64,000 bases of DNA from the NCBI GenBank assembly GCA_951406725.2, contig OX597817.1, forward strand, positions 39,246,001 to 39,310,000, in the 5' to 3' direction. The notes beneath the pieces are model-generated. The model saw only the letters and a list, made by a program, of their open reading frames with translations. It ran no database searches and had not been told where the DNA came from. This document shows, piece by piece, positions 2,928 through 61,246 of the stretch (positions are counted from its first letter, which is position 1; each line of letters opens with the position of its first letter). The DNA is from Octopus vulgaris (lineage: Eukaryota). The translations under genes and the position numbers were made by a program.

Positions 2928-3518
2928 CACCTGTCTCCACACGTCTATGTTAGAAATCAATAACTGAAACATTTTGGAATTTAAAATAATTTACATTTTA
3001 ATTTCTAATTTATTATATTGACTTATAGTATCAGATCTATCAAAAGAAATATGAAACTGTGAGAAGTTCATACCTTTCTTAGCGGTACGAGCGCCTTAGG
3101 TGAAATAAAACTGTATTAAAACTGAGTTTTGAACTCGGCTCTGCCACCACCTAATTGTCAATGTAGGGTGTTCACTTCACAAATTAGTATGGGATATCAA
3201 ATCGTGATAATTAAGCGGTTATGTTGTTAAAAAGCACACTTAATGACTGGAAAACTAAGCTTGAGTATATTCTAACATAATTAATCCTAAAAGACATCAA
3301 GCCACAGATCAACGTCCGTTTATATTGTTGCGCCTTCATTAATTAGTTGGTTTGTGTTTGTTTTATTTCTGTCTGTTCAATAGGATGAAACTAACATAGC
3401 ATTAATAACATACACAATTGGAATAACAACGTGTAAACTTAGAACGAGAAGGCTGACCTCTTATTCACCCGTTCTTCGTTGCATTTCTGAAATAAGTGAT
3501 CACCAAGACAGATACATT

Positions 3519-3829
3519 GTGGAGGTGCAATGGCCCAGTGGTTAGGGCAGCGGACTCGCAGTCGGAGGATCGCGGTTTCGATTCCCAGACGGGCGTTGTG
3601 TGTGTTTATTGAACGAAAACACCTAAAAGCTCCACGAGACCCCGGCAGGCGATGGTGGCGACCCCTGTTGTACTCTTTCGCCACAACTTTCTCTCACTCT
3701 CTCTTCCTGTTTCTTGAGTAACGCTGCGATGGACTGGCGTCCTATCCAGCTAGGGGGAACACATACGCCACAGAAACCGGGAAACTGGGCCCATGAGTCA
3801 GGCTAGGCTTGAAAAGGGCGACAAAAAAA
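3519..3829 (+). mobile_element. tRNA-derived SINE, family R
   Basis: A-box TGGCCCAGTGG, B-box GGTTTCGATTCCC, A-rich tail; near-identical inverted copy at 19805-20120. Confidence 0.9.
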
Positions 3830-3889
3830 AAGACAGATACATTAAGGAAAAGTACATATAGATTTATCATGATGATATCTAATTATATC

Positions 3890-4100
3890 AGACAGCGAGC
3901 TGGCAGAACCGTTAACACATCGGACAAAATGCTCAGCTACATTTCGTCCATCTTTATTTTCTGAGTTCAATTTCCGCCTAGATCGACTTTGTCTTTCATC
4001 TCTTCGAGGTCAATAAAGTAAGTACCAGTTTTATATGGAGTCGATGTAATCGACTAACCTCTCCCTCCTACAGTTGCGGGATTTGTGCCAAAATTTGAAA
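3890..4100 (+). mobile_element. SINE family N, diverged
   Basis: GAGCTGGCAGAACCGTTAACAC...GAGTTCAATTTCCGCC...GACTTTGTCTTTCATC matches family N. Confidence 0.8.
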
Positions 4101-6069: not shown

Positions 6070-6890
6070 GTTGAAGAATAATTCATGAGCGTTTTTTTTT
6101 CAATTTTTAATTTTTAATTTTATTGATTTTTTTGTCTATTTTCAGGTAATTATAATAGAATGTCAAGTGGACAAAGCTGAGCATTTTCGACACCATTTGC
6201 TTTTTGCATTTAATCGAGATGTTCAGCCCGCCGAAGCTGCTCGTGAGATTTGTGTTGTGTATGGAGGAGCAATGCCTCAAAGTACCGCCCGCCGTTGTTT
6301 TTCTCGCTTCAAAAATGGGAATTTTGACCTCAAAGATGTATCACACACCGGTCGATTAATTGAGTTCGATGAACCTTGCCTATTGAATGAAGATGGCTCA
6401 CCACAGTTTAAATTTTTTTTATCACAATCCATCTGCTCCCTCAATTCTCTGGTTGTTTGACGTGGATTTTCATGAAGAAGATGATTCAATCGCTCTTCAT
6501 CGGACTCAACTAGTCGACCGGTGTGTGATCCATCTTTGAGGTCAAAATTGGAATTTTTGAAGCGCGAAAATCAACGGCGGGCAGTGCTCTTTCTCCATAC
6601 ATAACACAAATCTCACGAGCAGCTTCGGCGGGCTTAACACCTCGATTAAATGCAAACAGCAAATGGTGTCGAAAATGCTCAGTTTTGTCCACTTGACATT
6701 CCATTTTAATGATCTGAAAATACAAAAAAATCAATAAAATTTTAAAAAATCAAAACACACTATCTTGTAGAGCAAAAAATTATCTTTCAAATAACATTAA
6801 ATAATTTTGCCAATGCATTTTATATTTGCGTACATTTTTAAATTAAAAAAAAAAAGGAAAAAAACGCTCATGAATTATTCTTCAACCCAA
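6066..6890. mobile_element. Mariner-derived fold-back element (two inverted 5' halves)
   Basis: Perfect ~30-bp TIRs TTGGGTTGAAGAATAATTCATGAGCGTTTT, flanked by TA. The mariner N-terminal HTH (HFRHHLLFAFNR..PAEAAREIC..YG) is encoded on + at 6167 and on - at 6734; the second HTH (LLHENPRQTTREL) is on - at 6489. Confidence 0.9.
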
Positions 6891-9249: not shown

Positions 9250-9772
9250 TTAAATTTTGGCACAGAGCCAGCAATGTTGGGGTGGGGGTAAGTACTCAAC
9301 TGGTTCTTATTTTAAGAGCGAAGATGAAAGACAAAGTAGACCACGGCGGAATTGGAACTCAGAACGTAAAGAGAGATGAAATACCTATTTCTTTACTACC
9401 CACAAGGGGCTAAACACAGAGAGGACAAACGGATTAAGTCGATTATATCGACCCCAGTGCGTAACTGGTACTTATTTAATCGACCCCGAAAGGATGAAAG
9501 GCAAAGTAGACCACGGCGGAATTGGAACTCAGAACGTGAAGAGAGATGAAATACCTATTTCTTTACTACCCACAAGGGGCTAAACACAGAGAGGACAAAC
9601 AAAGACAGACAAACGGATTAAGTCGATTATATCGACCCCAGTGCGTAACTGGTACTTATTTAATCGACCCCGAAAGGATGAAAGGCAAAGTCGACCTCGG
9701 CGGAATTTGAACTCAGATGAAATACCGCTAAGCATTTCGCCCGGCGTGCAAACGATTCTGCTTGCTCGCCGT
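9250..9772 (-). mobile_element. Tandem multimer of SINE family N (~3 partial units)
   Basis: Repeated GATGAAAG..AAAGTAGACCACGGCGGAATTGGAACTCAGAAC...TTTCTTTACTACCCACAAGGGGCTAAAC units. Confidence 0.85.
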
Positions 9773-9877
9773 CTTGGTAATAGTAACGCAAAACATTGTG
9801 TCACTGTCTACAGAATCATCTAGCACAAACTGACAAAATCAAGGTCCCCACCATAAAAAGAATATGAGTGAACGCTT

Positions 9878-10037
9878 AGGAGTGGCTGTGTGGTAAGTAG
9901 TTTGCTTACCAACCACATGGTTCCGGGTTCAGTCCCACTGCATGGCACCTTGAGCAAGTATATTCTACTATAGCCTCGGGCCGACCAAAGCCTTGTGAGT
10001 AAATTTGGTAGACGGAAACTGAAAGAAGCTTGTCGCA

Positions 10038-10117
<80 letters not shown>

Positions 10118-10318
10118 TTTGCGTGTGTCCCACCAACATCGCTTGACAACCGATGCTGGTGTGTTTACGTCCCCGTAACAAAGCGGTTCGGCATAAAAGA
10201 CCGATAGAATAAGTTCTAGGCTTATAAAGAATAAGTCCTGGGGTCGATTTGGTCGACTAAAGGCGGTGCTCCAGCATGACCACAGTCAAATGACTGAAAC
10301 AAGTAAAAGAGTAGAGAG
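9878..10318 (+). mobile_element. SINE family K, full length
   Basis: A-box TGGCTGTGTGG, B-box GGTTCAGTCCC, internal (TA)n(TG)n, conserved 3' half. Confidence 0.92.
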
Positions 10319-10499
10319 TATTTAAAAAATCTGTTTCCTGTTTTTAAACGATAAGAAAATATCAAAATCTGGTTCAAATTTTGTGGTTCCTTCAATCACA
10401 ACTGATTGCAAGTAGTTAGTTAACACAATTTAATATATTTCATGCTTGAAAATGTTCTTTCACACAAATAAATTGTGTGAAAAGCCCACTCACAGCAAA

Positions 10500-11888
10500 A
10501 AATTTTTAAAGGAGTAAATCCTTTATCTAGGAGTCATTTTATAAATGTTTTCCCTTTTATAAATGTATTTTCCTTTTAGCATATCATTTGGCAACAAATC
10601 AATAACTTCCGGTTGAAGATCTATTGGATGTCACTTCAATAATGCAGTGAAATGGCTTTTGAAAGGTTTTTAATGATTTCACATTTTTATTGAGATTTGC
10701 CAAACTCTGTTAATATTGTAACTTCTGTCAAGTGAAAATGTGATGCGTGATTTAGAAAGGAAACAAGAATTTTGCTTCTTTCGCATATTTATCACAGCAA
10801 GAAAAGTGACCGAAGTTATTTATCATAAACTGGGATTGGTAAAATGTTATTTTATGCTTCTACAGCAGAGTTTATGCTTATAAGCTCAGAATGGCAATGT
10901 GATCTTAGATGGAGCTCGTGAAGTGGGGAATGCCATTTTCCCACACCATTTGCCGTTTGCAATTTGTGCCTGAGAACAATTTTTCTCATTAAAATAAATA
11001 AAAATCCTCATCAGAAGTTTTAAAAACTTCCTGAGATAACTCCACCGTTACTAAACAATCTTTCAGTAGTGTGGTATAGCTGCTTACTAAACATTACTGT
11101 TACTAAACCATTATTCAATAGTGTAGTACAGCAAATTGCTATATTCAGTTTGTATTTCTTCCCAAAATGTTCGAAACTGACATTGATTGAGCACATGCGA
11201 TCAAATAAAATTCGCTGTTTGTCGCTTGGTTCTGTCACAGACGATAGATTTAAATGTTTTACGCAAAGTTCCTGGTGATGAATGGTGCAGTAAAACACCA
11301 TAGAGTTTTTTTTATTTTTACATTACACTTCATACTGTCACAAGTTGTGTAGGCTCAGTCAATATAACCTTTCTTTACGCCACACAAAATTTTTCCACCG
11401 TCGCTTGTAAAATACTTTAAATGTTTTTAAACCAGGTTGCACTTAGTTAATGTTTTCTCCAGCTCTTAGGAAATGTCATCATCAATAGCTATTCCATAAC
11501 TTCGTAGTCAGCATTAATTCCCTCAACAAACAATAGCAACACCGAACTGTCAGACGCAGCTGTCCATTCATCAAGAACCAGAGAAAACCAAACAGAAATC
11601 TTTCGTATTGTTGTTTAATTGGAACAAGATATTGCTTCCTATGTCTTCGACTCCCCCAGTCTCTGATGTTGTAGAAAGACTAATTTTTTTAATGAATTTA
11701 TTTTTACGGAATATACATATAGGTGCAGGCACGGCTGTGTGGTTAAGAAGCTAGCTTTGTAACCGAGTGGTTCTGTGTTCAGTCTCTATGTGCGGGACCT
11801 TGGATAAGTAGCCTTCTGCTATAGCCCCGGGCCAACCAATACTTTCGTGAGATATTTTGGTGGACGGGAACTACATGGGAGCCCATCG

Positions 11889-11920
<32 letters not shown>

Positions 11921-12450
11921 GATTGTCCCTTCCCACCGGTTGACAAACGATGTTTGGTTTAATTACCTCCTCGTAACTTACCAGTGCGGTGAAGTAAACC
12001 GATAAAATAAGTACCAGACTTCAAAAACAAATACTGGCGTCTATTTGTTCGACTTAAATTTTTGAAAGCTATGCTCCAACATGGCCACAGTCCACTGACT
12101 GAAACAAGCAAAAGATAAAAGATACTTCTTTAGCTGTTGTAATCACAAAAAAAATTAATTAATTCACCGCCACTAAATGAGGTTTCTTTTTTCTTGGTTT
12201 GTAAATAATCTACTCTCAGACTAGCCTTTTAGTTACTTCTTTATTAGCAGTTATCCAAGTAAAAAACCCCAAAAAACACGTCTGTTAAAAATACTGATAA
12301 AATACTTTCATATCTCCCATGACGTAGTTTTTCTATTTGAAGAGAATTAGGATATGAATACTTCGTTTGATAATGCTTACGTATATTATATTCCTCCAGG
12401 ACTGCGTTATTCTTGCTGCATATAACACATAATACGTTTTTGTTGTTTGG
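10500..12450 (-). pseudogene. Decayed hAT (Charlie/SPIN-type) transposase, interrupted by a SINE
   Basis: Minus-strand peptide YCTIHHQELCVKHLNL (HCIIHQE.LC motif) and a FSLVLDEWT.ASD catalytic-D-like motif near 11550-11590; many frameshifts; boundaries approximate. Confidence 0.7.
11720..12125 (+). mobile_element. SINE family K, diverged, nested in the hAT remnant
   Basis: Both halves and the internal (TA)n are recognisable. Confidence 0.85.
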
Positions 12451-12579: not shown

Positions 12580-12670
12580 TAACGTTCATTGTTATGTCCA
12601 GTTATAATAAAGGCAATTTTTACATTAACCTGATGGGTTACTCCATAGTTTTGTAGAGAACTAATTTATT

Positions 12671-12785
12671 ATTCTAAGACAAGAATATTATTGGTAGTGA
12701 CTTCGAAGTTTTGGCCAGCTAAGCCATCAGTGGACTGCAGTCTGAAACTTCGAAGTCAGTGTCAATAATATTCTTATTTAAGAAT
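12671..12785. repeat. Fold-back inverted repeat with HHR-like halves
   Basis: About 40-bp arms (AAGAATATTATTGG..TGACTTCGAAGTTT / AAACTTCGAAGTCA..CAATAATATTCTT). GAAA-CTTCGAAG-TC on +, CTGATGG on -. Confidence 0.7.
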
Positions 12786-12790
12786 ATTTT

Positions 12791-12821
<31 letters not shown>

Positions 12822-12824
12822 AAG

Positions 12825-14005
12825 CAAAATATGAGTTAGAGGTTATTCAACCATCTAAGGAATAATGTATCCGTTGACACTACTGGTCTATTACCTCACT
12901 AAGTATAGTTATAGTTATAAGGTATACAGTAGTTGGTGATCTAATGGTAAAACCGTGGTTTAATATATATAGAAAAGAAAAGAAATGGAGCAGTGATTAA
13001 CAATGAGAAGTTGATCATTGGTATTAAAAAAGTCATAGTTTAATTGTAGTTCAGAACCGTTTACAGCTGTTTCTGTTTATCAAATCAAAGTAAATTTGCA
13101 TTTATCTCGTTCAATTTAACAAACATCGTCAGAATGATTTAGAGAAATATAAATAGGAGAAAAGGGAAAAGGAAAAAGTTCGTTAAGACGTTAGGCTTAA
13201 ATTTTTTGTGACTATTTGGGTTCCAAGTGTGTGTACGTTTCTTCAATTTGCTGAATGGAGCAGTAAGTGGGAAGTGACAAGTTGACCGGCGGTGTAAGTC
13301 GAAGGAGATATACCTGGTGGAGATATTCGGTGTTGTTAATTGTAATACATAACGCTGTTTGTGACTGCTAGGTCAGTTCCTATGGTTACAAATAATGCCC
13401 TTGTTAAAAACTAAGGATGCTTCATGGGCTCTGTAAAGGAATGATAAAAAAAAGATAAAGAGTACATAAAAAATCAATAAAGATCAATTAAAATAAACTA
13501 ATACATAACGTGTTAAGTGTGTCGGCTATCTAGCTTTAAAGTGAATATATTATCGAGGATTATATGCCCTAATGTACAACGCAGAGTCTAAATAGTTTGG
13601 TTAATCTGGGTAATTTAATTTAAAATTGCGATGTGATGTTAAATTATGCTCTGTGGTAAGTGGGATGGTTCGGGGAGATAATAAGATGTTAGGTAGGTCA
13701 GCTAATAACCTGTAATGTGAGTATTAGCGATATTTTGAGAATAAGAATTTATCTTTATGCAAATATGTCATATTTCTCGTTTCGTTTACTAAGTAATTCT
13801 GATTTGGTCATTAAAATGAAGAATTTCTCATTTATGCATAAATTACAGCGATTATTATTAAGGTTTTAGGAAGATGCTTTGGCTAGGATACGCCATTCTA
13901 ATCTATAATTAATGTTGTTGTCTTTCAGTTCCCAGATCTAAATACTTAGTCTTGTAGGGTTCGCTTTACTTCTGTTTCTGAAACTTGAGCGATGGGAGTT
14001 ATTAC
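12825..14005 (-). mobile_element. Penelope-like retroelement 3' fragment (GIY-YIG C-terminus plus pLTR)
   Basis: Minus strand ~14003-13735 translates NSHRSSFRNRSKANPTRLSI*IWELKDNNINYRLEWRILAKASS*NLNNNRCNLCINEKFFIL, the typical PLE endonuclease C-terminus. An HHR lies downstream and the element ends at (TACA)n. Confidence 0.85.
13055..13139 (-). ncRNA. Type I hammerhead ribozyme, canonical core
   Basis: AAUCAUU-CUGACGA-[12-bp stem II UGUUUGUUAAAU/AUUUGAUAAACA]-GAAA-CAGCUG-UA-AACGGUU; palindromic stem III ACAGCUGU; stem I 6 of 7 paired. Confidence 0.85.
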
Positions 14006-14153
14006 AACTGGATTCAGGCTCTTGGTATTGACCACGTGTAATGATACTCTTCATATTGGGGCACCGGCTATATGATAATTGTAACTATCGCGACCAGGAT
14101 CCTTTTCACAAGTACTCTTCCTCTACTGTCGCTCTTGGGAAGAAGATGTAAGC

Positions 14154-14200
14154 AGATCCTGATGAGTAATTAAATAACAATGAAATCAATCGGTCTATCT
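14154..14200 (+). ncRNA. Minimal hammerhead-like motif
   Basis: AGAUC-CUGAUGA-GUAAUUAAAUAACAAU-GAAA-UCAAUCGG-UC-UAUCU; core intact, stem II weak. Confidence 0.55.
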
Positions 14201-15382
14201 TCATCACATAGTTGTCTTCTAGTTACAGGCCAGTCCCGATTGATCAGATCAATAACCAAAACTACAGAGTCATGATCATCCAGTCTTTTTTTTTTTCTGA
14301 TATAGTGCATCGAGGATCATATACTACATTTGATGGCATAAAAGACACATGGGCATATTAAACTCACCCCAATTTCAGGAGAGAATATTCAGGTAAAAAA
14401 AAAAGGCTTAAGCGTTAAAGCTTATGGGATGCCCAACTTCACATATAGGACCTGATGGGGATTTTTGAAACATTTTCCGGGGTAATAAAAGTGTGCTTTT
14501 TATATGATATCAAATAAAGTACTTTGTTTAATGTGTCCTTCCTTTTTTAAGACGATAAAATGTATCAAGAAGATTTGACTGTTATTTTCAATTCCTTGAG
14601 CGGTTACGCAGAGGCTACTTCCTCATTGGTTCGTAAATGTAGATGTCATTCCAATAGCTTATCATTTTTAGTAACTTCTTCCAAACACAAAAATGGGTAA
14701 TTCTAGTGTATGTACGAGGTAGAACGAAATTAGAAGATTCCGCTTTAAATAAATTGTTGTGTTTATTAAAGCTGCAATTTAGTTGAAGCTACATTTGTTT
14801 TATTTATTGAAATTACAATCCAGCTTCTTGGCATCGGTAGTTCAGACTTCTTCCGTAACGTATAATTATCTGAACTGAAAAATGTCTGTTGTATCCGGAA
14901 TGAAAACAGTTTACAACTTATCATTGTAATTGATGTTGTGATCTATATACAAGCTAGTTGAGAATTGCCAGACTGGTCTTATCTTGTCGGACAAGGTAGC
15001 TATTCATAGCAGTGATTTTACAACTTTCGTAAAGTAAGAAGATAAATTTGGTGTGCTGTGAAGCGAGGTGATATTCTGACGCTTTAGGGTAGAAAGTATC
15101 TTTGAAGAAATGAGAAGTGTGTTGTTAGAAGACAGTTGATTTAAGTTGAAGAGTGAAAAAAAACAACATACACACAAGTGAGAAGAAGTTGGGGGCGGTA
15201 TTAAGCGGGGAGGAGATCAACAACGAACGCAATGACAGGTAAAGAATAGTAAGATGGGGAAAGAAAGAAAAAAGTAAAACATTTGAAGAATATATATAAC
15301 GGGTTATGTTACGATTAAATTGCTCGAAGTCTGTGAGATAGCGTAATAATGAACGATCTCTTACATATGTTCTATATATGTA

Positions 15383-15887: not shown

Positions 15888-18800
15888 CAGGGGTGGGGAA
15901 ACCCCCGCCCACTGGTGCAATTGCACCCCCGAGCCCATTTTATTGCGCTCGCAGGATGATATTGTATGTACAAAATAAAGTAAATTTTTCAATTATGAAA
16001 TTTATACAATACTCGTATGCCCATTTGCGACATAGGTATCCACTACGACTTCAAACGGTCAGACTCGAACAGAAATCGTCCGGTAATTGCCATTTGGATG
16101 GACATTTTGTCTTCACTATAAAACACAGATTGTTAGGTTTGTACCACCTACATGAGACCCAACTACACTTTAGCTGAGAAAACTAAAAATATATTGCATG
16201 TATCGAAATAATTTTTATATGAAACGAAAGCTGAAGGGTTGTAGAGGTACTGTGTAAAAGTTATTCATATCCAAGAACCCCAAGTATTTAAATTTTCCTC
16301 CTTATTTCATTTGTCACGTCTTCATCCTCTCTTTGTCAATCGATAAGCAAAAAATATTTTAAAATCTATTAAAGATCAAAAACAAATTGGTAAAGCTTCA
16401 TCGAAACAGAAAATACTAAAAAGGCAGTGAAAAATAACGTTTTTCGAAAGGGGTGTCACATTTTTGCTGTCAGTCGGAGTCAAGAAAGTCAACAGGAGTT
16501 ATTTTCATCTGCCATCGGCTTATCAGTTATCGCCTTTCCTTATCCACTTGTCAACACCTGTGTGGAGGAGGGAAAGAGAAAAATCAAGTTAAACCTTGCA
16601 GAACCAAACAATATTTTAATTTTTTGCAGATTTTTATTTTTTACTATTTTTACAACACTGAACGCATGCATTACGACTACGAGCCAGTTGGCTTTTGTTT
16701 TTTCTAGGCAGCGGTAATAGCAAAAATTCCGAAAGTGATAATATAAATTTAACCGGTTTATAACTTTGTAGTGATGCCATTTTGGAAATCTTCGGCACGC
16801 ATGAGCAGAGTTTGGATTCTTCCGGGAGGCCTACCGGAAGTTCTCTCATGCGCATGCGCAGAAAACTAGCAGCAGCAAAATTTCCCGCGTATCGACCTCT
16901 CTCGAAGGCTGACAGTCGAACAGGACGATCGTGTTTTAACAGCTCTCTCAAACTGCTACATCGTGGCGTTGCTACACTATGCTTGAACGGACAGGATTTG
17001 GCTCACTCCACTTGACTACTGCGACGAGATCCTAAGCTGCCGATTCGCCCTGAAGAAGATCTATATATTGCGAATCCAGAAATAAAAATATTTATACTGT
17101 TGAAGTTATTAGAAGTCTTGGCTTTTCTTTCGATTAATAATTTAATGTAAGTGATGAGAGTTGCACCCCTCCAGTGTTACAGACCTTTAATCCTGTTACA
17201 ACTTTGTTAACGTTGTTAAATCAATTTGTCAATACACTTATCAATATGGCAAGTGGTTATAAAAACCCTATGAAAAGAACGTGCTTTGTTCGATGAAAAA
17301 TGGACTGAGCTATATTTTTTAATTGAAATAGATAACAAGTACATTTGTCTTATCTGCTACGAACAAGTAGCCGTTCATAGAAAATATAATATAGAGGGGC
17401 ATTTTGAGAGTAAGCATAAGACCTATGAAAATTTGAAAGAATCTGAACGTTTAGACAAGCTAGCCTCCTTGAAAGTAAATCTGATCAAAAGGCAAACTTT
17501 TTTTTGAAGGCCGATTCTTGAAAGTGGATCAGTTACTCGAGCTAATTATGCGATATGCAAAAATATTGCTAAAAAATCTCAAGCGGCGTAGCGATGATGA
17601 ATTCGTGACAGAATGTATCCTTACTGGTGTTGAGAATATATGCCCAGAAAAAAATTAATTTGTTTGGAAAATTTAGCTTATCAAGAAGAACTGTTTCTGA
17701 TCGTATTAAATATATTGCTAATGACATTCAAAATTCTCATACATCTGATTCAGCAGAATTCGTATTGTATTCATTAGCTATAGATGAGACAACTGACCTG
17801 TCTAATACTGCTCAGATGGCAATATTTATACATTGAATAACTGCAACATTCAACATTCGGGAAAATTTCCTTGAAAGATTTTGATTTACTATATGAAAAA
17901 ATGAGTGGTCTTGCTCCATCTACGGTAGGTCGTGAAAAAGGGTTCGTAGCTCTGATTAAGAATGAATTTAAGAAGCGTCTTTTGGATCTGGAAACTTTAA
18001 TTGTGTGTCACTGCTTTATTCGTATGGAAAGTTTATGTGCAAAATCTCTCAAAATGGGCAATGTAATGATAATTGTAACTAAGGCCGTTAATTTGATAAA
18101 AAGCAAAGGGTTGAATAGTAGGGAATTTAAAGAATTTTTGAAAGATCTTGAAACCAATTATGGGGATTTATTGTACCATTGTGAAGTTATGTGATTAGGT
18201 AAGGCCCAAATGCTTAAGCGATATTATGAACTGAAGGAAGAAGTGGAACATTTTTATGGATATTAAAGGTGTTCCTATTATAGAACTGGAAGATAAAAAG
18301 TTTCAAGGTGATTTAACATTTATAGTAGATATAACTAGTCATTTAAATAATTTGAACTTGAAACTACCAGGCTCCAGTCAGCTAATAACCAGTTTGCTTT
18401 CTCATATGAAAAGCTTTGAATCGATGCTTCATTTATTTGTCACACAATTGAAAAGAAAGTGCTTCACACATTTTCCGAGAATCCTGAATCAACAAAGGAA
18501 TATTTTGACGAGTGTGAAAGTCTTTTAAAGAAATTTGAAAGTAAATTTTAAAAAATACAAGATAAAATCCAATTTACGTGTTTTTGAAACACCTTTTGAT
18601 ACGTGTCCTGAAGAGGATCCGGATTCTTTACAATTAGAATTAATTGATTTGCAGCCGGATAACTTATTAAAATCGAAATGTAATAATCTGTCTTTATTTG
18701 ACTTCTACAGACCCATCACACCTGAGAAATTTCCTGCTTTACATAAAACGCCTTGAAATTCATGTCTCAATTTTCGACAATTTATCAATGTGGGTAGTTT

Positions 18801-30750: not shown

Positions 30751-31188
30751 TGCAAGAGTTATGAAATGGAGTATGGGAAATCCGGGCTACATATGTTTCA
30801 TAGCGAGTGGAACCTCAGAAGTGGTAAAATCCAAGTGTGGTGTATATCGCCGGCTACTTTTCAGGCCAGGATATCCTGAAGAGTAGCCGGCGATATTACA
30901 CCACACTTTGATTTTACCACTTCTGAGATTCCACTCGCTATGAAACATATGTAGCCCGGATTTCCCATATTGCATTACGTAACTCTTGTATTCTTCTTCG
31001 TATACTCAGCAACCCTGTTTGCTTACTGAAAAATATAATAACCTTTTTCAGTTTATCGTTCTTCGATAAAAAAATCCGCAACCTTCCGTATCAATAAACC
31101 TCTATTGTTCCTGAAAGTTGTCTTTTTATATTCATTACGGATTGCTCGAAGTTAAATTTCTTCCTACACTTCGATCCCTGGAGCTTAC
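30751..31188 (+). mobile_element. Fold-back insert with head-to-head HHRs (arms 30751-30865 / 30875-30990) plus ~200-bp tail
   Basis: About 115-bp inverted arms lying between TA-rich tracts. Confidence 0.88.
30875..30956 (+). ncRNA. Hammerhead ribozyme motif (mirror copy on - at ~30785-30867)
   Basis: CUGAAGA-GUAGC...GCUAU-GAAA-CAUAUG-UA-GCC; palindromic stem III ACAUAUGU. The mirror copy has stem I GGC/GCC but core CUGAAAA. Confidence 0.8.
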
Positions 31189-31475: not shown

Positions 31476-31842
31476 ATATTTGCCACTTAAATGTGGCTAA
31501 CCCTTAAAGGTGGATGCTACTGTAGCTTGTAGTCCCAGGAGGACAACTCCTCCAGCTAGCTATTGACACACTATCAGAGCCCTATCAGTATTTGCAAAGG
31601 GAAGCCATCCTTCACATCTCCAACCTGACATGATACACACGGACTCGAGTTTCTGAATATTGATCCGCCATCAGCGTGTGACAATCACCGGTTGTCGATG
31701 TGAAGTGGAGGAGGTGTCCTCCTGAGGCTACAACCTATAGTAGCATCCACCCTTAAGGGTTAGCCACATTTAAGTGGCAAATATACTTCACGATGTCGTG
31801 CAGCTACTGTTTATACCTCGCTCAGAGATTTATTATTGCTTA
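31472..31842. mobile_element. Fold-back insert in (TA)n (arms ~31472-31554 / 31705-31787) with internal HHR and ~55-bp tail
   Basis: AAGTATATTTGCCACTTAAATGTGGCTAACCCTTAA.GGTGGATGCTACT inverted; (TA)n on both sides. Confidence 0.88.
31636..31680 (-). ncRNA. Minimal type I hammerhead motif
   Basis: CACACG-CUGAUGG-CGGAU-CAAU-AUUCA-GAAA-CUCGAG-UC-CGUGUG; perfect 6-bp stem I, palindromic stem III ACUCGAGU, GUC site, A9G deviation. Confidence 0.8.
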
Positions 31843-58949: not shown

Positions 58950-59345
58950 GAGTGAGTAGACAAACGAAAAAAGGGCACTCAACACATTTATTGGGAGTTA
59001 CATGTATAGATCAAAACAGTTTGATTCAACCTCCTTGGTATTTTGAGTTTCTAGCACGTGGCTAGTTTTCGGCCATTGGAATCAGAATGAGAGTTCGATT
59101 GAAGTGAGTCAATGTTTATTACTGGACGATAGCTTGTGATTGGTCGACAAAGGTCAGGTGGTATTAATGTCGGTAATTCAGTGGCAACAGCTAGTGATAG
59201 CAGTCACTACCACGTGACCTTTCTCGACCAATCGCCCAGTAATAAACATTGACTCTCTTTAATCGAACTCTCATTCAGACTCCAATGGCCGAAGACTAGC
59301 CACGTGCTTGAAACTCAGAGTACCAAGGATTCTGAACCAAACTGT
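58950..59345 (-). mobile_element. Fold-back insert with HHR (arms ~59016-59163 / 59198-59345) plus left tail
   Basis: About 145-bp diverged inverted arms lying between TA-rich tracts. Confidence 0.85.
59286..59325 (+). ncRNA. Minimal hammerhead motif, U4C core (mirror copy at ~59036-59076)
   Basis: UGG-CCGAAGA-C-UAGC-CACGU-GCUU(A in mirror)-GAAA-CUCAGAG-UA-CCA. Confidence 0.7.
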
Positions 59346-59790: not shown

Positions 59791-60244
59791 CGGATCCGTT
59801 TTCTTCCGTCCTTGTTTTCGTATACATTCGCTGCTTTCTTCCAAGGAATCTAATGCTCTTAGCTTAGTTTTTCTTTGGGGCTGGCCAGATTGTATAATCT
59901 CGAGTATAACCAGCCGAAATTGCAAAGATAATTTGGAACTCGACTGAGAATAGGAAACTCCGACAAAATTCCGTGCAGCACAGAATTTTGTCAGTGAACA
60001 GGTCGCGGTCTCAAAGCGACGAAAATATTTTGGCAAATTAAATTTAAATGTTGAAGTGAATCTTACGGTTTTTGTATGTTTCTTAAATAGCTTGTAAACA
60101 CCTTCCTCGCTGCAATTGTTTTCGCTCCAGCACACGATCTCAGATTAGGTCTCTTGCTTTGCAAGTACATCTCCGTCCGTATATATATATATATATATAT
60201 ATATGAAAGAAGGTTTGAAAATGCAAAGGTCTTTTAGAGATGTT

Positions 60245-61215
60245 TCTGTAGTTAGATGCCAGACCATAGACCCACCACCAAGAGAAAGCGCCACCGGAAA
60301 GTACTGTGGTTCACGCCGCCATTCTCTTTAAATGTTAAGATCAGAGTAGGTAAAGTCTTTCTTAGTTTAGTTGATAGACATTTCTCCCGTTCCAATAGAT
60401 TGTGCAAAATATTTAATAGCCTTACCCTGAGATTATCCTTTAGCTATACCCGCACTCGAGGCAGGAGCAGGATGCTCATGCAGGGATAACACAACTTGTC
60501 CACTGAACGGTCACTACAATACGGAGACAGTTGTTAACGAGGCAGAAGTAACAGCAATAGGACCCAATGGACAACCGAGCGTGCGGAAGTATGTAGGGGT
60601 AATGGAAGGTCCTTTCAGAACCTGCGTTAATAACCACAAATCCTCCTTCAACATTTCAGAGATACGCAACTCCACAACTCTAGCCAAGCACGTCTGGGCT
60701 TTGAATGAAAGTGCCGCGGAGTACAACATAAAGTGGAAGATCTTAGAAAAATACAAACCATACTTCAATAGCTGCAGGAAGTGCAGATTATGCCTGGCTG
60801 AGAAGAGCGATTTTAAAAGGTACCCAACAGCCGGATGTCTACCTGAATAGCAGGAGTGAGGCGTTTAATCCTTGCCCGCATGAAAGGAAGTACATCCTAT
60901 CGTACCTGAGCACTCCACCATGACTGCAACTACAGGCTCTCTACTCCGACCCTCCATCAACGACCTTCTACCAATGCTCTCGGGCCCGGCAAAAAGCGTT
61001 TGACCAAAGTACATCCATGGCATACCTCTTTAAGGCGGACACTCCACAAAATAGACTTCCACCACCCCAACACATACCCCTGCACACAAATATATCCCTA
61101 CACATATACAGACCTCCCCACACGCATTACATATTACGCACACATTACGCACGCTAACAAAAAGCACCGATTGGTAAGATCAGCTGTGATGGATATTTAA
61201 TACTATACATTTCGG
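60245..61215 (+). mobile_element. Penelope-like retroelement 3' fragment (RT-EN linker, GIY-YIG, 3' region)
   Basis: RKVLWFTPPFSLNVKIRVGKVFLSLVDRHF...KIFN..TLRLSFS; CPLNG...VVNEAEV...KYVG...HKSSF...STTLAKHVWAL...IKWKIL...CRLCLAEK; flanked by (TA)n and (TATG)n. Confidence 0.92.

Positions 61216-61246
<31 letters not shown>

Follow-up and report, generated by a model that had tools for sequence, protein, structure and literature searches.

The closest described systems are the hammerhead ribozymes carried by Penelope-like elements (PLEs). These ribozymes are reported to be inactive as monomers and weak as dimers (PMC4209133, PMC6765202), and G-C is the pair preferred beside their core (PMC4209133). 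In one active PLE the hammerhead needed the protein of the element and was dispensable for insertion in vitro (PMC11167929). The Hydra clade of PLEs is marked by RWK, DK[TS], a CxC..C linker and CxxC..E (Craig et al. 2021, PMC8557442, section 11), and in its supplement alignment W.LK and CxLC..E appear in the displayed Hydra rows and not in the adjacent Penelope/Poseidon rows. File S2 of the same work has 26 Hydra rows with a 3' hammerhead, five of them with an ACAG..CUGU stem III, and a plant element, PLE-X1_sMoe, whose domain II is about 53 nt, so that a domain II of this length has a precedent among PLEs. PMC8557442 gives inverted 5' pieces as usual for these elements. In the sections covered of that paper and of bioRxiv 10.64898/2026.07.22.740005 the Hydra clade is listed from invertebrates only. 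PLE hammerheads and the Hydra clade, including an octopus member, are already published, and the family described here is another.

The locus under study lies in a 64-kb window (the whole stretch of DNA that was analysed) and its features are given in Table 1. The motif at 13055-13139 probably represents the type I hammerhead at the 3' terminus (pseudo-LTR) of a Penelope-like retrotransposon of the Hydra clade, now decayed. The linkage of the parts into one element, the dimer mechanism and the history of integration are presumed.

Table 1. Features of the locus, in the direction of the element from 5' to 3'
Feature	Positions	Strand	Basis or remark
Inverted piece at the 5' junction, about 29 nt, corresponding to the beginning of the deleted segment	14081-14109	+	
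Short RT-thumb/linker piece	14005-14080	-	profile 524-542, weak alone: iE 8.2
C-terminal half of Hydra-clade PLE endonuclease	13724-14002	-	profile 612-689 of 703, iE 3.6e-21
Putative 3' UTR / pseudo-LTR region, from ORF stop to ribozyme, about 590 nt	13140-13723	-	
Splice-acceptor-like AG after pyrimidine tract	13431-13432	-	match of a possibly-RNA contig starts here
Type I hammerhead ribozyme motif, whole	13055-13139	-	core boxes read in sequence, folding, random-window count
Stem I, 5' arm	13133-13139	-	partner is 13061-13055
Core box CUGACGA (C3-A9)	13126-13132	-	sequence
Domain II, 52 nt: stem of 16 pairs (G.U included) with a small internal loop and an inner hairpin of 4 pairs	13074-13125	-	
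GAAA box, palindrome ACAGCUGU of stem III (8 nt) and A17 of the cleavage site	13062-13073	-	
Stem I, 3' arm	13055-13061	-	
Element 3' tail	12825-13054	-	family contigs; exact end not fixed, alignment began at 12825

The core of the motif is that of a type I hammerhead (CUGANGA, GAAA and U16.1-H17) and contains each of the conserved bases. GAAA is found at 13073-13070, ACAGCUGU at 13070-13063 and A17 at 13062, all on the minus strand, and the predicted cut site is between 13062 and 13061. The original prediction of a minus-strand hammerhead cut at this site agrees with the core boxes as read, and the palindromic stem III that it described is present and loopless. Its description of the core as fully canonical holds for all the conserved core bases, with the exceptions of the U-A pair of stem II beside the core, where the usual G-C is found one step outward, and of an A13135.C13059 mismatch in stem I. 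The latter stem is paired in six of seven positions, one as G.U, the mismatch being the third pair. G-C is the preferred pair beside the hammerhead core. Stem II had been given as 12 bp, and folding gives 16 pairs counting G.U, plus the inner hairpin. Domain II folds far better than its own shuffles (z -3.93, 0 of 200) and the stability of the whole 96-mer is not unusual (z -1.39, 19 of 200).

A strict descriptor matches the 64-kb window only at this motif. The rate of chance matches was estimated with 3477 random 64-kb windows, generated by an order-2 Markov model in 2-kb blocks, which contained 802 descriptor matches with a stem II of at least 4 pairs, 26 with at least 8 and 1 with at least 12. 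Rfam identified no hammerhead at gathering score in the whole window, and six weak matches, none of them a hammerhead, in 12600-14600; the model probably marks down this motif for its long domain II. A CUGAUGA..GAAA on the plus strand at 14159 was rejected as a hammerhead, having a stem II of fewer than 4 pairs and lying in single-copy DNA.

The endonuclease half contains two in-frame stops and a frameshift near 13770, and the frame holding the last endonuclease motif reaches a stop at 13726-13724 (minus strand). The RT-thumb/linker piece is joined directly to it. Comparison with the profile places at about 14003-14005 an internal deletion by which the copy lost its CxCx5C linker and, together with the catalytic Arg, its GIY-YIG core (profile positions about 563-611). 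What had been described as a GIY-YIG fragment is the C-terminal half of a PLE endonuclease, the GIY-YIG motif itself being deleted. Family contigs at the deletion point carry other letters (30 nt seen), and those with loose ends at 14005 read as the CxCx5C linker (22-29 contigs per DNA run, by-eye translation). In this copy CxxC..E is intact, CxH is decayed and frameshifted with the H in the next frame, and the CxCx5C linker is cut off after its first Cys by the internal deletion. The RT is truncated away, the 5' end of the copy being at 14080.

The peptide used as query was the frame 14081-13728 with X written at four stops. It found 2529 relatives at E<=0.001, the best at 5.5e-16, which bears out the predicted match to PLE endonucleases. 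By way of one relative, P0010, 120 longer proteins were retrieved and the 59 with 690-735 aa were kept. These full-length relatives contain RWK (57 of 59), DK[TS] (59), CxCx4-7C (58) and CxxC..E (59); RWK and DKT, absent here with the RT, are thus seen in the relatives derived from P0010. The endonuclease is without a CCHH motif in the alignment with relatives. Membership in Penelope/Poseidon, Neptune or Naiad was ruled out by the endonuclease motifs, and the sequence supports the Hydra clade. Named databases gave little: Pfam identified 0 families on the window peptide and only weak GIY-YIG or RT matches in two sets of relatives (12 and 5), the broken peptide retrieved no named protein of the family or its host in word-based searches, and a full-length relative as query had no match in PDB. 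P0010 is a Hydra-type protein annotated in the pipefish Nerophis ophidion, on a 62-Mb contig, and could be there by horizontal transfer or contamination.

Hydra-clade elements insert in (TA)n. On the 3' side the element adjoins TATATA and an (ATAC)n at 12791-12821; most family copies cover 12937-13054 and some reach about 12826, beside this microsatellite. On the 5' side is single-copy non-repeat DNA, which follows the inverted piece at 14113-14280. Paralogous contigs end at 13724 and 14002 and present loose ends at 14005 and 14080, the latter continuing into the RT-thumb region by by-eye translation. This copy is therefore 5'-truncated at 14080 and internally deleted at about 14003. The inverted piece agrees with the loose-end letters at 14005 in 24 of 30 letters with one gap (by eye), and would have arisen by template switching at integration. 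At insertion the copy would already have been truncated at its 5' end, with a small inversion there, and would have lacked the endonuclease core through the internal deletion; the stops would have come later. The insertion is common to three organism labels: the inversion junction is spanned by contigs from both organism B and organism C, and the deletion junction by one contig from C, in each case with few differences. Beside the insertion flank, 14281-14500 is another multi-copy repeat, with many loose ends at 14328. Beyond the other end, 12670-12786 is a long imperfect inverted repeat, a MITE-like hairpin which draws weak matches to miRNA families.

The depth of the family was obtained from 4 of 24 sequencing runs aligned on 12825-14500 at 80% likeness. 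None of the runs listed is on record as RNA, which carries no information about expression, and bins of X15 without cover were left out of the evidence. The summed depth in X1 is about 50 on 14113-14224, 3,400-4,100 on 13777-13944, 21 at 13441-13496, 1,300-2,200 on 13217-13440 and 9,300-12,400 on 12937-13160, the ribozyme being about three times as deep as the endonuclease. Contigs less than 90% alike were 662 of 1287. This points to a family of some hundreds of related loci, mostly old, the summed depth being no copy number. With the exception of the T-rich tract 13441-13496, the region 13140-13723 is multi-copy, and it presumably belongs to the same element as the endonuclease and the hammerhead. 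Immediately 5' of the ribozyme (13132-13160) the depth is lower by a factor of about eight, and 13132-13144 is where six of the joints listed (15 of 35) begin. The cause may be frequent stops or jumps of the reverse transcriptase at the foot of the long hairpin, or simply poor alignment of the CT-rich spacer. A literature search that covered subscription journals thinly turned up no paper on this family and none on cephalopod PLE hammerheads with a long stem II; the family may already be catalogued in Repbase/Dfam.

The ribozyme had been placed about 600 nt downstream of the endonuclease C-terminus on the same strand, and the spacing was measured as about 590 nt. Motif searches identified no other hammerhead between the ORF stop (13724) and 13132. 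At other loci the ribozyme is connected with 13275-13400, as in 6 of the 15 joints listed (35 in all), and further joints connect 13422 to 13505, 13472 to 13592 and the endonuclease to 13624. The bridging joints are formed by one contig per run, with a short side of 24-61 letters at 80% likeness, and among the contigs listed no single paralogous one spans from endonuclease to ribozyme; the tract 13441-13496 is near single-copy. Other family copies support the linkage of the two piecewise, not in one span.

The Hydra relatives used for comparison comprise the best 80 of 348 metagenome-contig loci. A sense hammerhead after the endonuclease was identified by descriptor in 48 of these 80 loci, and in 33 of the 48 with at least 300 nt downstream; of the remaining 32 loci, 22 were searched with a model and yielded 10 more, giving 58 of 80. 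The antisense control gave 3 descriptor matches in 209 kb. The spacing from stop to hammerhead is 48-351 nt in the 58 relatives (median about 120 nt in the 48 found by descriptor), all of them below the about 590 nt identified here, and their domain II is 11-36 nt against 52 nt here. A covariance model of 40 distinct Hydra hammerheads presents strong covariation, its rows having been chosen by descriptor for this fold. With this model the motif at 13055-13139 is absent at E<=10 in the window, and scores 4.2 bits in a search of 201 nt. Six relatives (L001, L012, L016, L026, L029 and L070) have a hammerhead upstream of the endonuclease match, as a 5' pseudo-LTR, and three (L030, L043 and L071) an antisense copy downstream of the endonuclease.

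In the folding prediction the active fold of the native monomer is 5-7 kcal/mol above the minimum. Pair probabilities are 0.001-0.008 in stem III, 0.01-0.18 in stem I and mostly above 0.8 over the first 13 pairs of stem II. Two native copies co-fold via the palindrome at -39.1 against 2 x -15.5 kcal/mol, stem I not being formed in the free co-fold, and a double hammerhead as drawn, with the inner hairpins left out, reaches only -26.3. No tandem partner or second copy of the unit was found in the 64-kb window. The A.C mismatch at 13135/13059 belongs to this copy, whereas its family and the Hydra relatives pair there: a letter pairing in stem I is found at 13059 in 96-99% of the depth of three DNA runs, and at the equivalent position in 40 of 40 Hydra relatives. 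With the family letters at 13087, 13081 and 13079, stem II has Watson-Crick pairs in place of G.U, but the letters at 13083 and 13084 (20-28% of X1 depth) would break stem II pairs unless compensated. The differences listed, which leave out 222 others, suggest covariation of stem II within the family. The pair beside the core tolerates U.U in the Hydra relatives, 19 of 40 being unpaired there.

By analogy with the known PLE hammerheads, the long stem II would fold at once and stem III could not close within one molecule. Two motifs in a tandem transcript would pair via the 8-nt palindrome into a double hammerhead, which would cut after GUA, probably with the help of the protein of the element, and would in this way trim element RNA out of longer transcripts. 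The copy at 13055-13139 had been named the best candidate for real activity. It is instead a poor one, because of its stem I mismatch and the lack of a tandem partner; stem III is also predicted unformed in the monomer. Being solitary and with a weakened stem I, it is most likely silent or weak. Measurable cleavage of the monomer would hardly be expected. As a dimer or with an extended stem III the same copy might cleave measurably, although failure would be the somewhat better guess, and a family copy with a paired stem I would quite likely be cleaved as a dimer.

Instead of one element, the locus could comprise two. A separate short non-autonomous element (a retrozyme-like monomer or solo pseudo-LTR), extending over about 12825-13440 or only over 12937-13160, would have landed behind an unrelated Hydra remnant and would also cleave as a dimer, with the PLE protein supplied in trans. 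This is unlikely, although it has several points on its side. The spacing and domain II are long compared with the 58 relatives, the 40-Hydra model fails on the motif, and X1 depth is much higher on the ribozyme than on most of the endonuclease, with only 21 at 13441-13496; however, an excess of 3' depth is expected from 5' truncation, joints of other loci bridge 13422-13505 and 13472-13592, and no many-contig joint skips the unit among the 15 of 35 listed. PLEs tend to insert beside one another and retrozyme monomers are common (PMC6765202 and bioRxiv 10.64898/2026.07.22.740005, respectively), but the unit has no tandem repeat in the window, no hammerhead is found at the usual distance behind the ORF stop, and chance adjacency is about 1% for one strict motif and about 5% for five by our own estimate (600 nt for each of two remnants, over 128 kb). 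A tandem retrozyme was ruled out, no 170-400-nt hammerhead units being found in tandem in the window. It is exceedingly improbable that the AT-rich DNA matches by chance and that the motif has no relation to ribozymes. The lack of Rfam and Hydra-model matches and a z of only -1.39 for the whole motif would fit such a match, but a comparable one occurred once in 3477 random windows, the motif belongs to a multi-copy family whose commonest letters improve its pairing, and it is located behind a Hydra endonuclease and on its strand. The 3'-terminal hammerhead of a Hydra-clade element is the preferred reading.

A further possibility, very improbable, is that the dead copy is part of a host transcript, in which the AG at 13432-13431 would receive an upstream exon by splicing and the hammerhead would lie in an exon on its sense strand. 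The exonised hammerhead could then cut or end the host RNA on meeting family RNA via the palindrome. The hint comes from a 261-nt X15 contig which matches 13433-13202 with 0 differences and whose first 29 letters do not fit, a DNA contig continuing across the 13433 break; it is however one contig of depth 2.3, from a run whose RNA nature is a guess, and 70 nt separate its end from the ribozyme. Of 83 AG sites in the stretch this one most resembles an acceptor, its pyrimidine richness is equalled at 15 of 3049 YAG sites in the window, and the insertion is present under three organism labels, but a stem I pair kept by the family is lost in this copy, which speaks against selection for cleavage. 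A scan of 60 of 239 frames gave no host exon. A native intron running from 13709 (donor) to the AG at 13431 would bring the spacing within the usual range but is unsupported, the donor being poor and no such joint being found among the 15 of 35 listed.

The window contains four other hammerhead-like motifs, without BLAST similarity to 13055-13139. The original prediction used this locus to interpret ORF-less hammerhead inserts as PLE-derived, which holds by analogy only; the four motifs being dissimilar, the locus does not prove their origin. At 30778-30962 there is a diverging inverted pair with cores at 30876 (plus strand) and 30864 (minus strand, G8 changed), a domain II of 58-59 nt and an 8-nt palindrome ACAUAUGU, in an inverted pseudo-LTR-like arrangement. 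The motifs of 13132 and 30876 were rejected as one family, as they do not align. A minimal hammerhead-like motif with A9 changed, a 6-pair stem I and the palindrome ACUCGAGU is found at 31632-31684 (minus strand). The motif at 59279-59332 (plus strand) is a decayed Hydra-type hammerhead in which U4 is changed; a (TA)n begins about 20 nt after it, and it is the best window match of the 40-Hydra model (14.8 bits, E 0.26). A second Hydra-clade remnant, from another family and 32% identical to that of 13724-14080, is located at 60206-61216 (plus strand). It is 5'-truncated in (TA)n and frameshifted, contains the linker and GIY-YIG region, and by eye resembles Hydra-1_Obim; no hammerhead was found between it and a (TATG)n array. 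Remnants of DNA transposons are found on the plus strand at 6089-6457 (Mos1 HTH, E 2e-15) and 17274-17504 (Spin-doc zinc finger, E 9e-10).

The hammerhead of 13132, with its long domain II, is missed by Rfam and by the 40-Hydra model, and hammerheads that escape standard models matter for counting these ribozymes in animal genomes. A broader reading is that a lineage-specific subtype of PLE hammerhead, long-armed and with a loopless palindrome (domain II of 50-60 nt and 8-nt stem III, in the two unrelated families of 13132 and 30876/30864) and escaping both Rfam and a model of other Hydra hammerheads, exists together with trans pairing of hundreds of copies and with the splicing of this copy into a cuttable host transcript; as a whole this is very improbable. 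This copy and its better-paired relatives form a natural pair for the need of stem I in a dimer-dependent hammerhead. If the splice hint were true and the ribozyme cut host RNA, the importance of the locus would be greater.

The Hydra-clade PLEs, including Hydra-1_Obim from Octopus bimaculoides, have in common with this locus a C-terminal endonuclease with CxxC..E and N/H motifs and no CCHH, a sense hammerhead near the 3' end and a TA-rich microsatellite beside the end (PMC8557442). In File S2, stem III ACAG/CUGU with A17 is found in Hydra-1_aMil, Penelope-1_NV and Penelope-1_SK, as here. Hydra-1_Obim itself is roughly one third identical to 13724-14002 over the endonuclease half (by eye) and has other stems II and III, and its spacing from stop to hammerhead is about 126 nt against about 590 nt here (by eye). 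Domain II is 52 nt here and does not exceed about 26 nt in any of the 26 Hydra rows (by eye). The loopless stem III also sets this motif apart from the Hydra hammerheads of File S2 and of the metagenome loci, and this copy is a non-coding remnant.

The PLE hammerheads described by Cervera and de la Pena 2014 (PMC4209133) and by Lunse et al. (via PMC6765202) are, like this one, of type I, with a palindromic stem III, an enlarged stem II and a short stem I without a defined loop; they are also mostly solitary copies from truncated elements, and dimer-dependent. Exceptions are stem II, with 16 pairs here against 6-8 in those described, and the pair beside the core, U-A here against G-C. Non-LTR retrozymes, as presented in PMC7229834 and bioRxiv 10.64898/2026.07.22.740005, also have a type I hammerhead in a short AT-rich non-coding animal repeat, whereas this locus has no tandem array, is adjoined by coding PLE sequence and lacks their canonical 6-bp stem I and 4-bp stem II. 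On the sequence features compared, the motif at 13055-13139 would work as the hammerheads of PLEs do, and by the features tested it appears to be such a ribozyme, located at the 3' end of a remnant of the Hydra clade.
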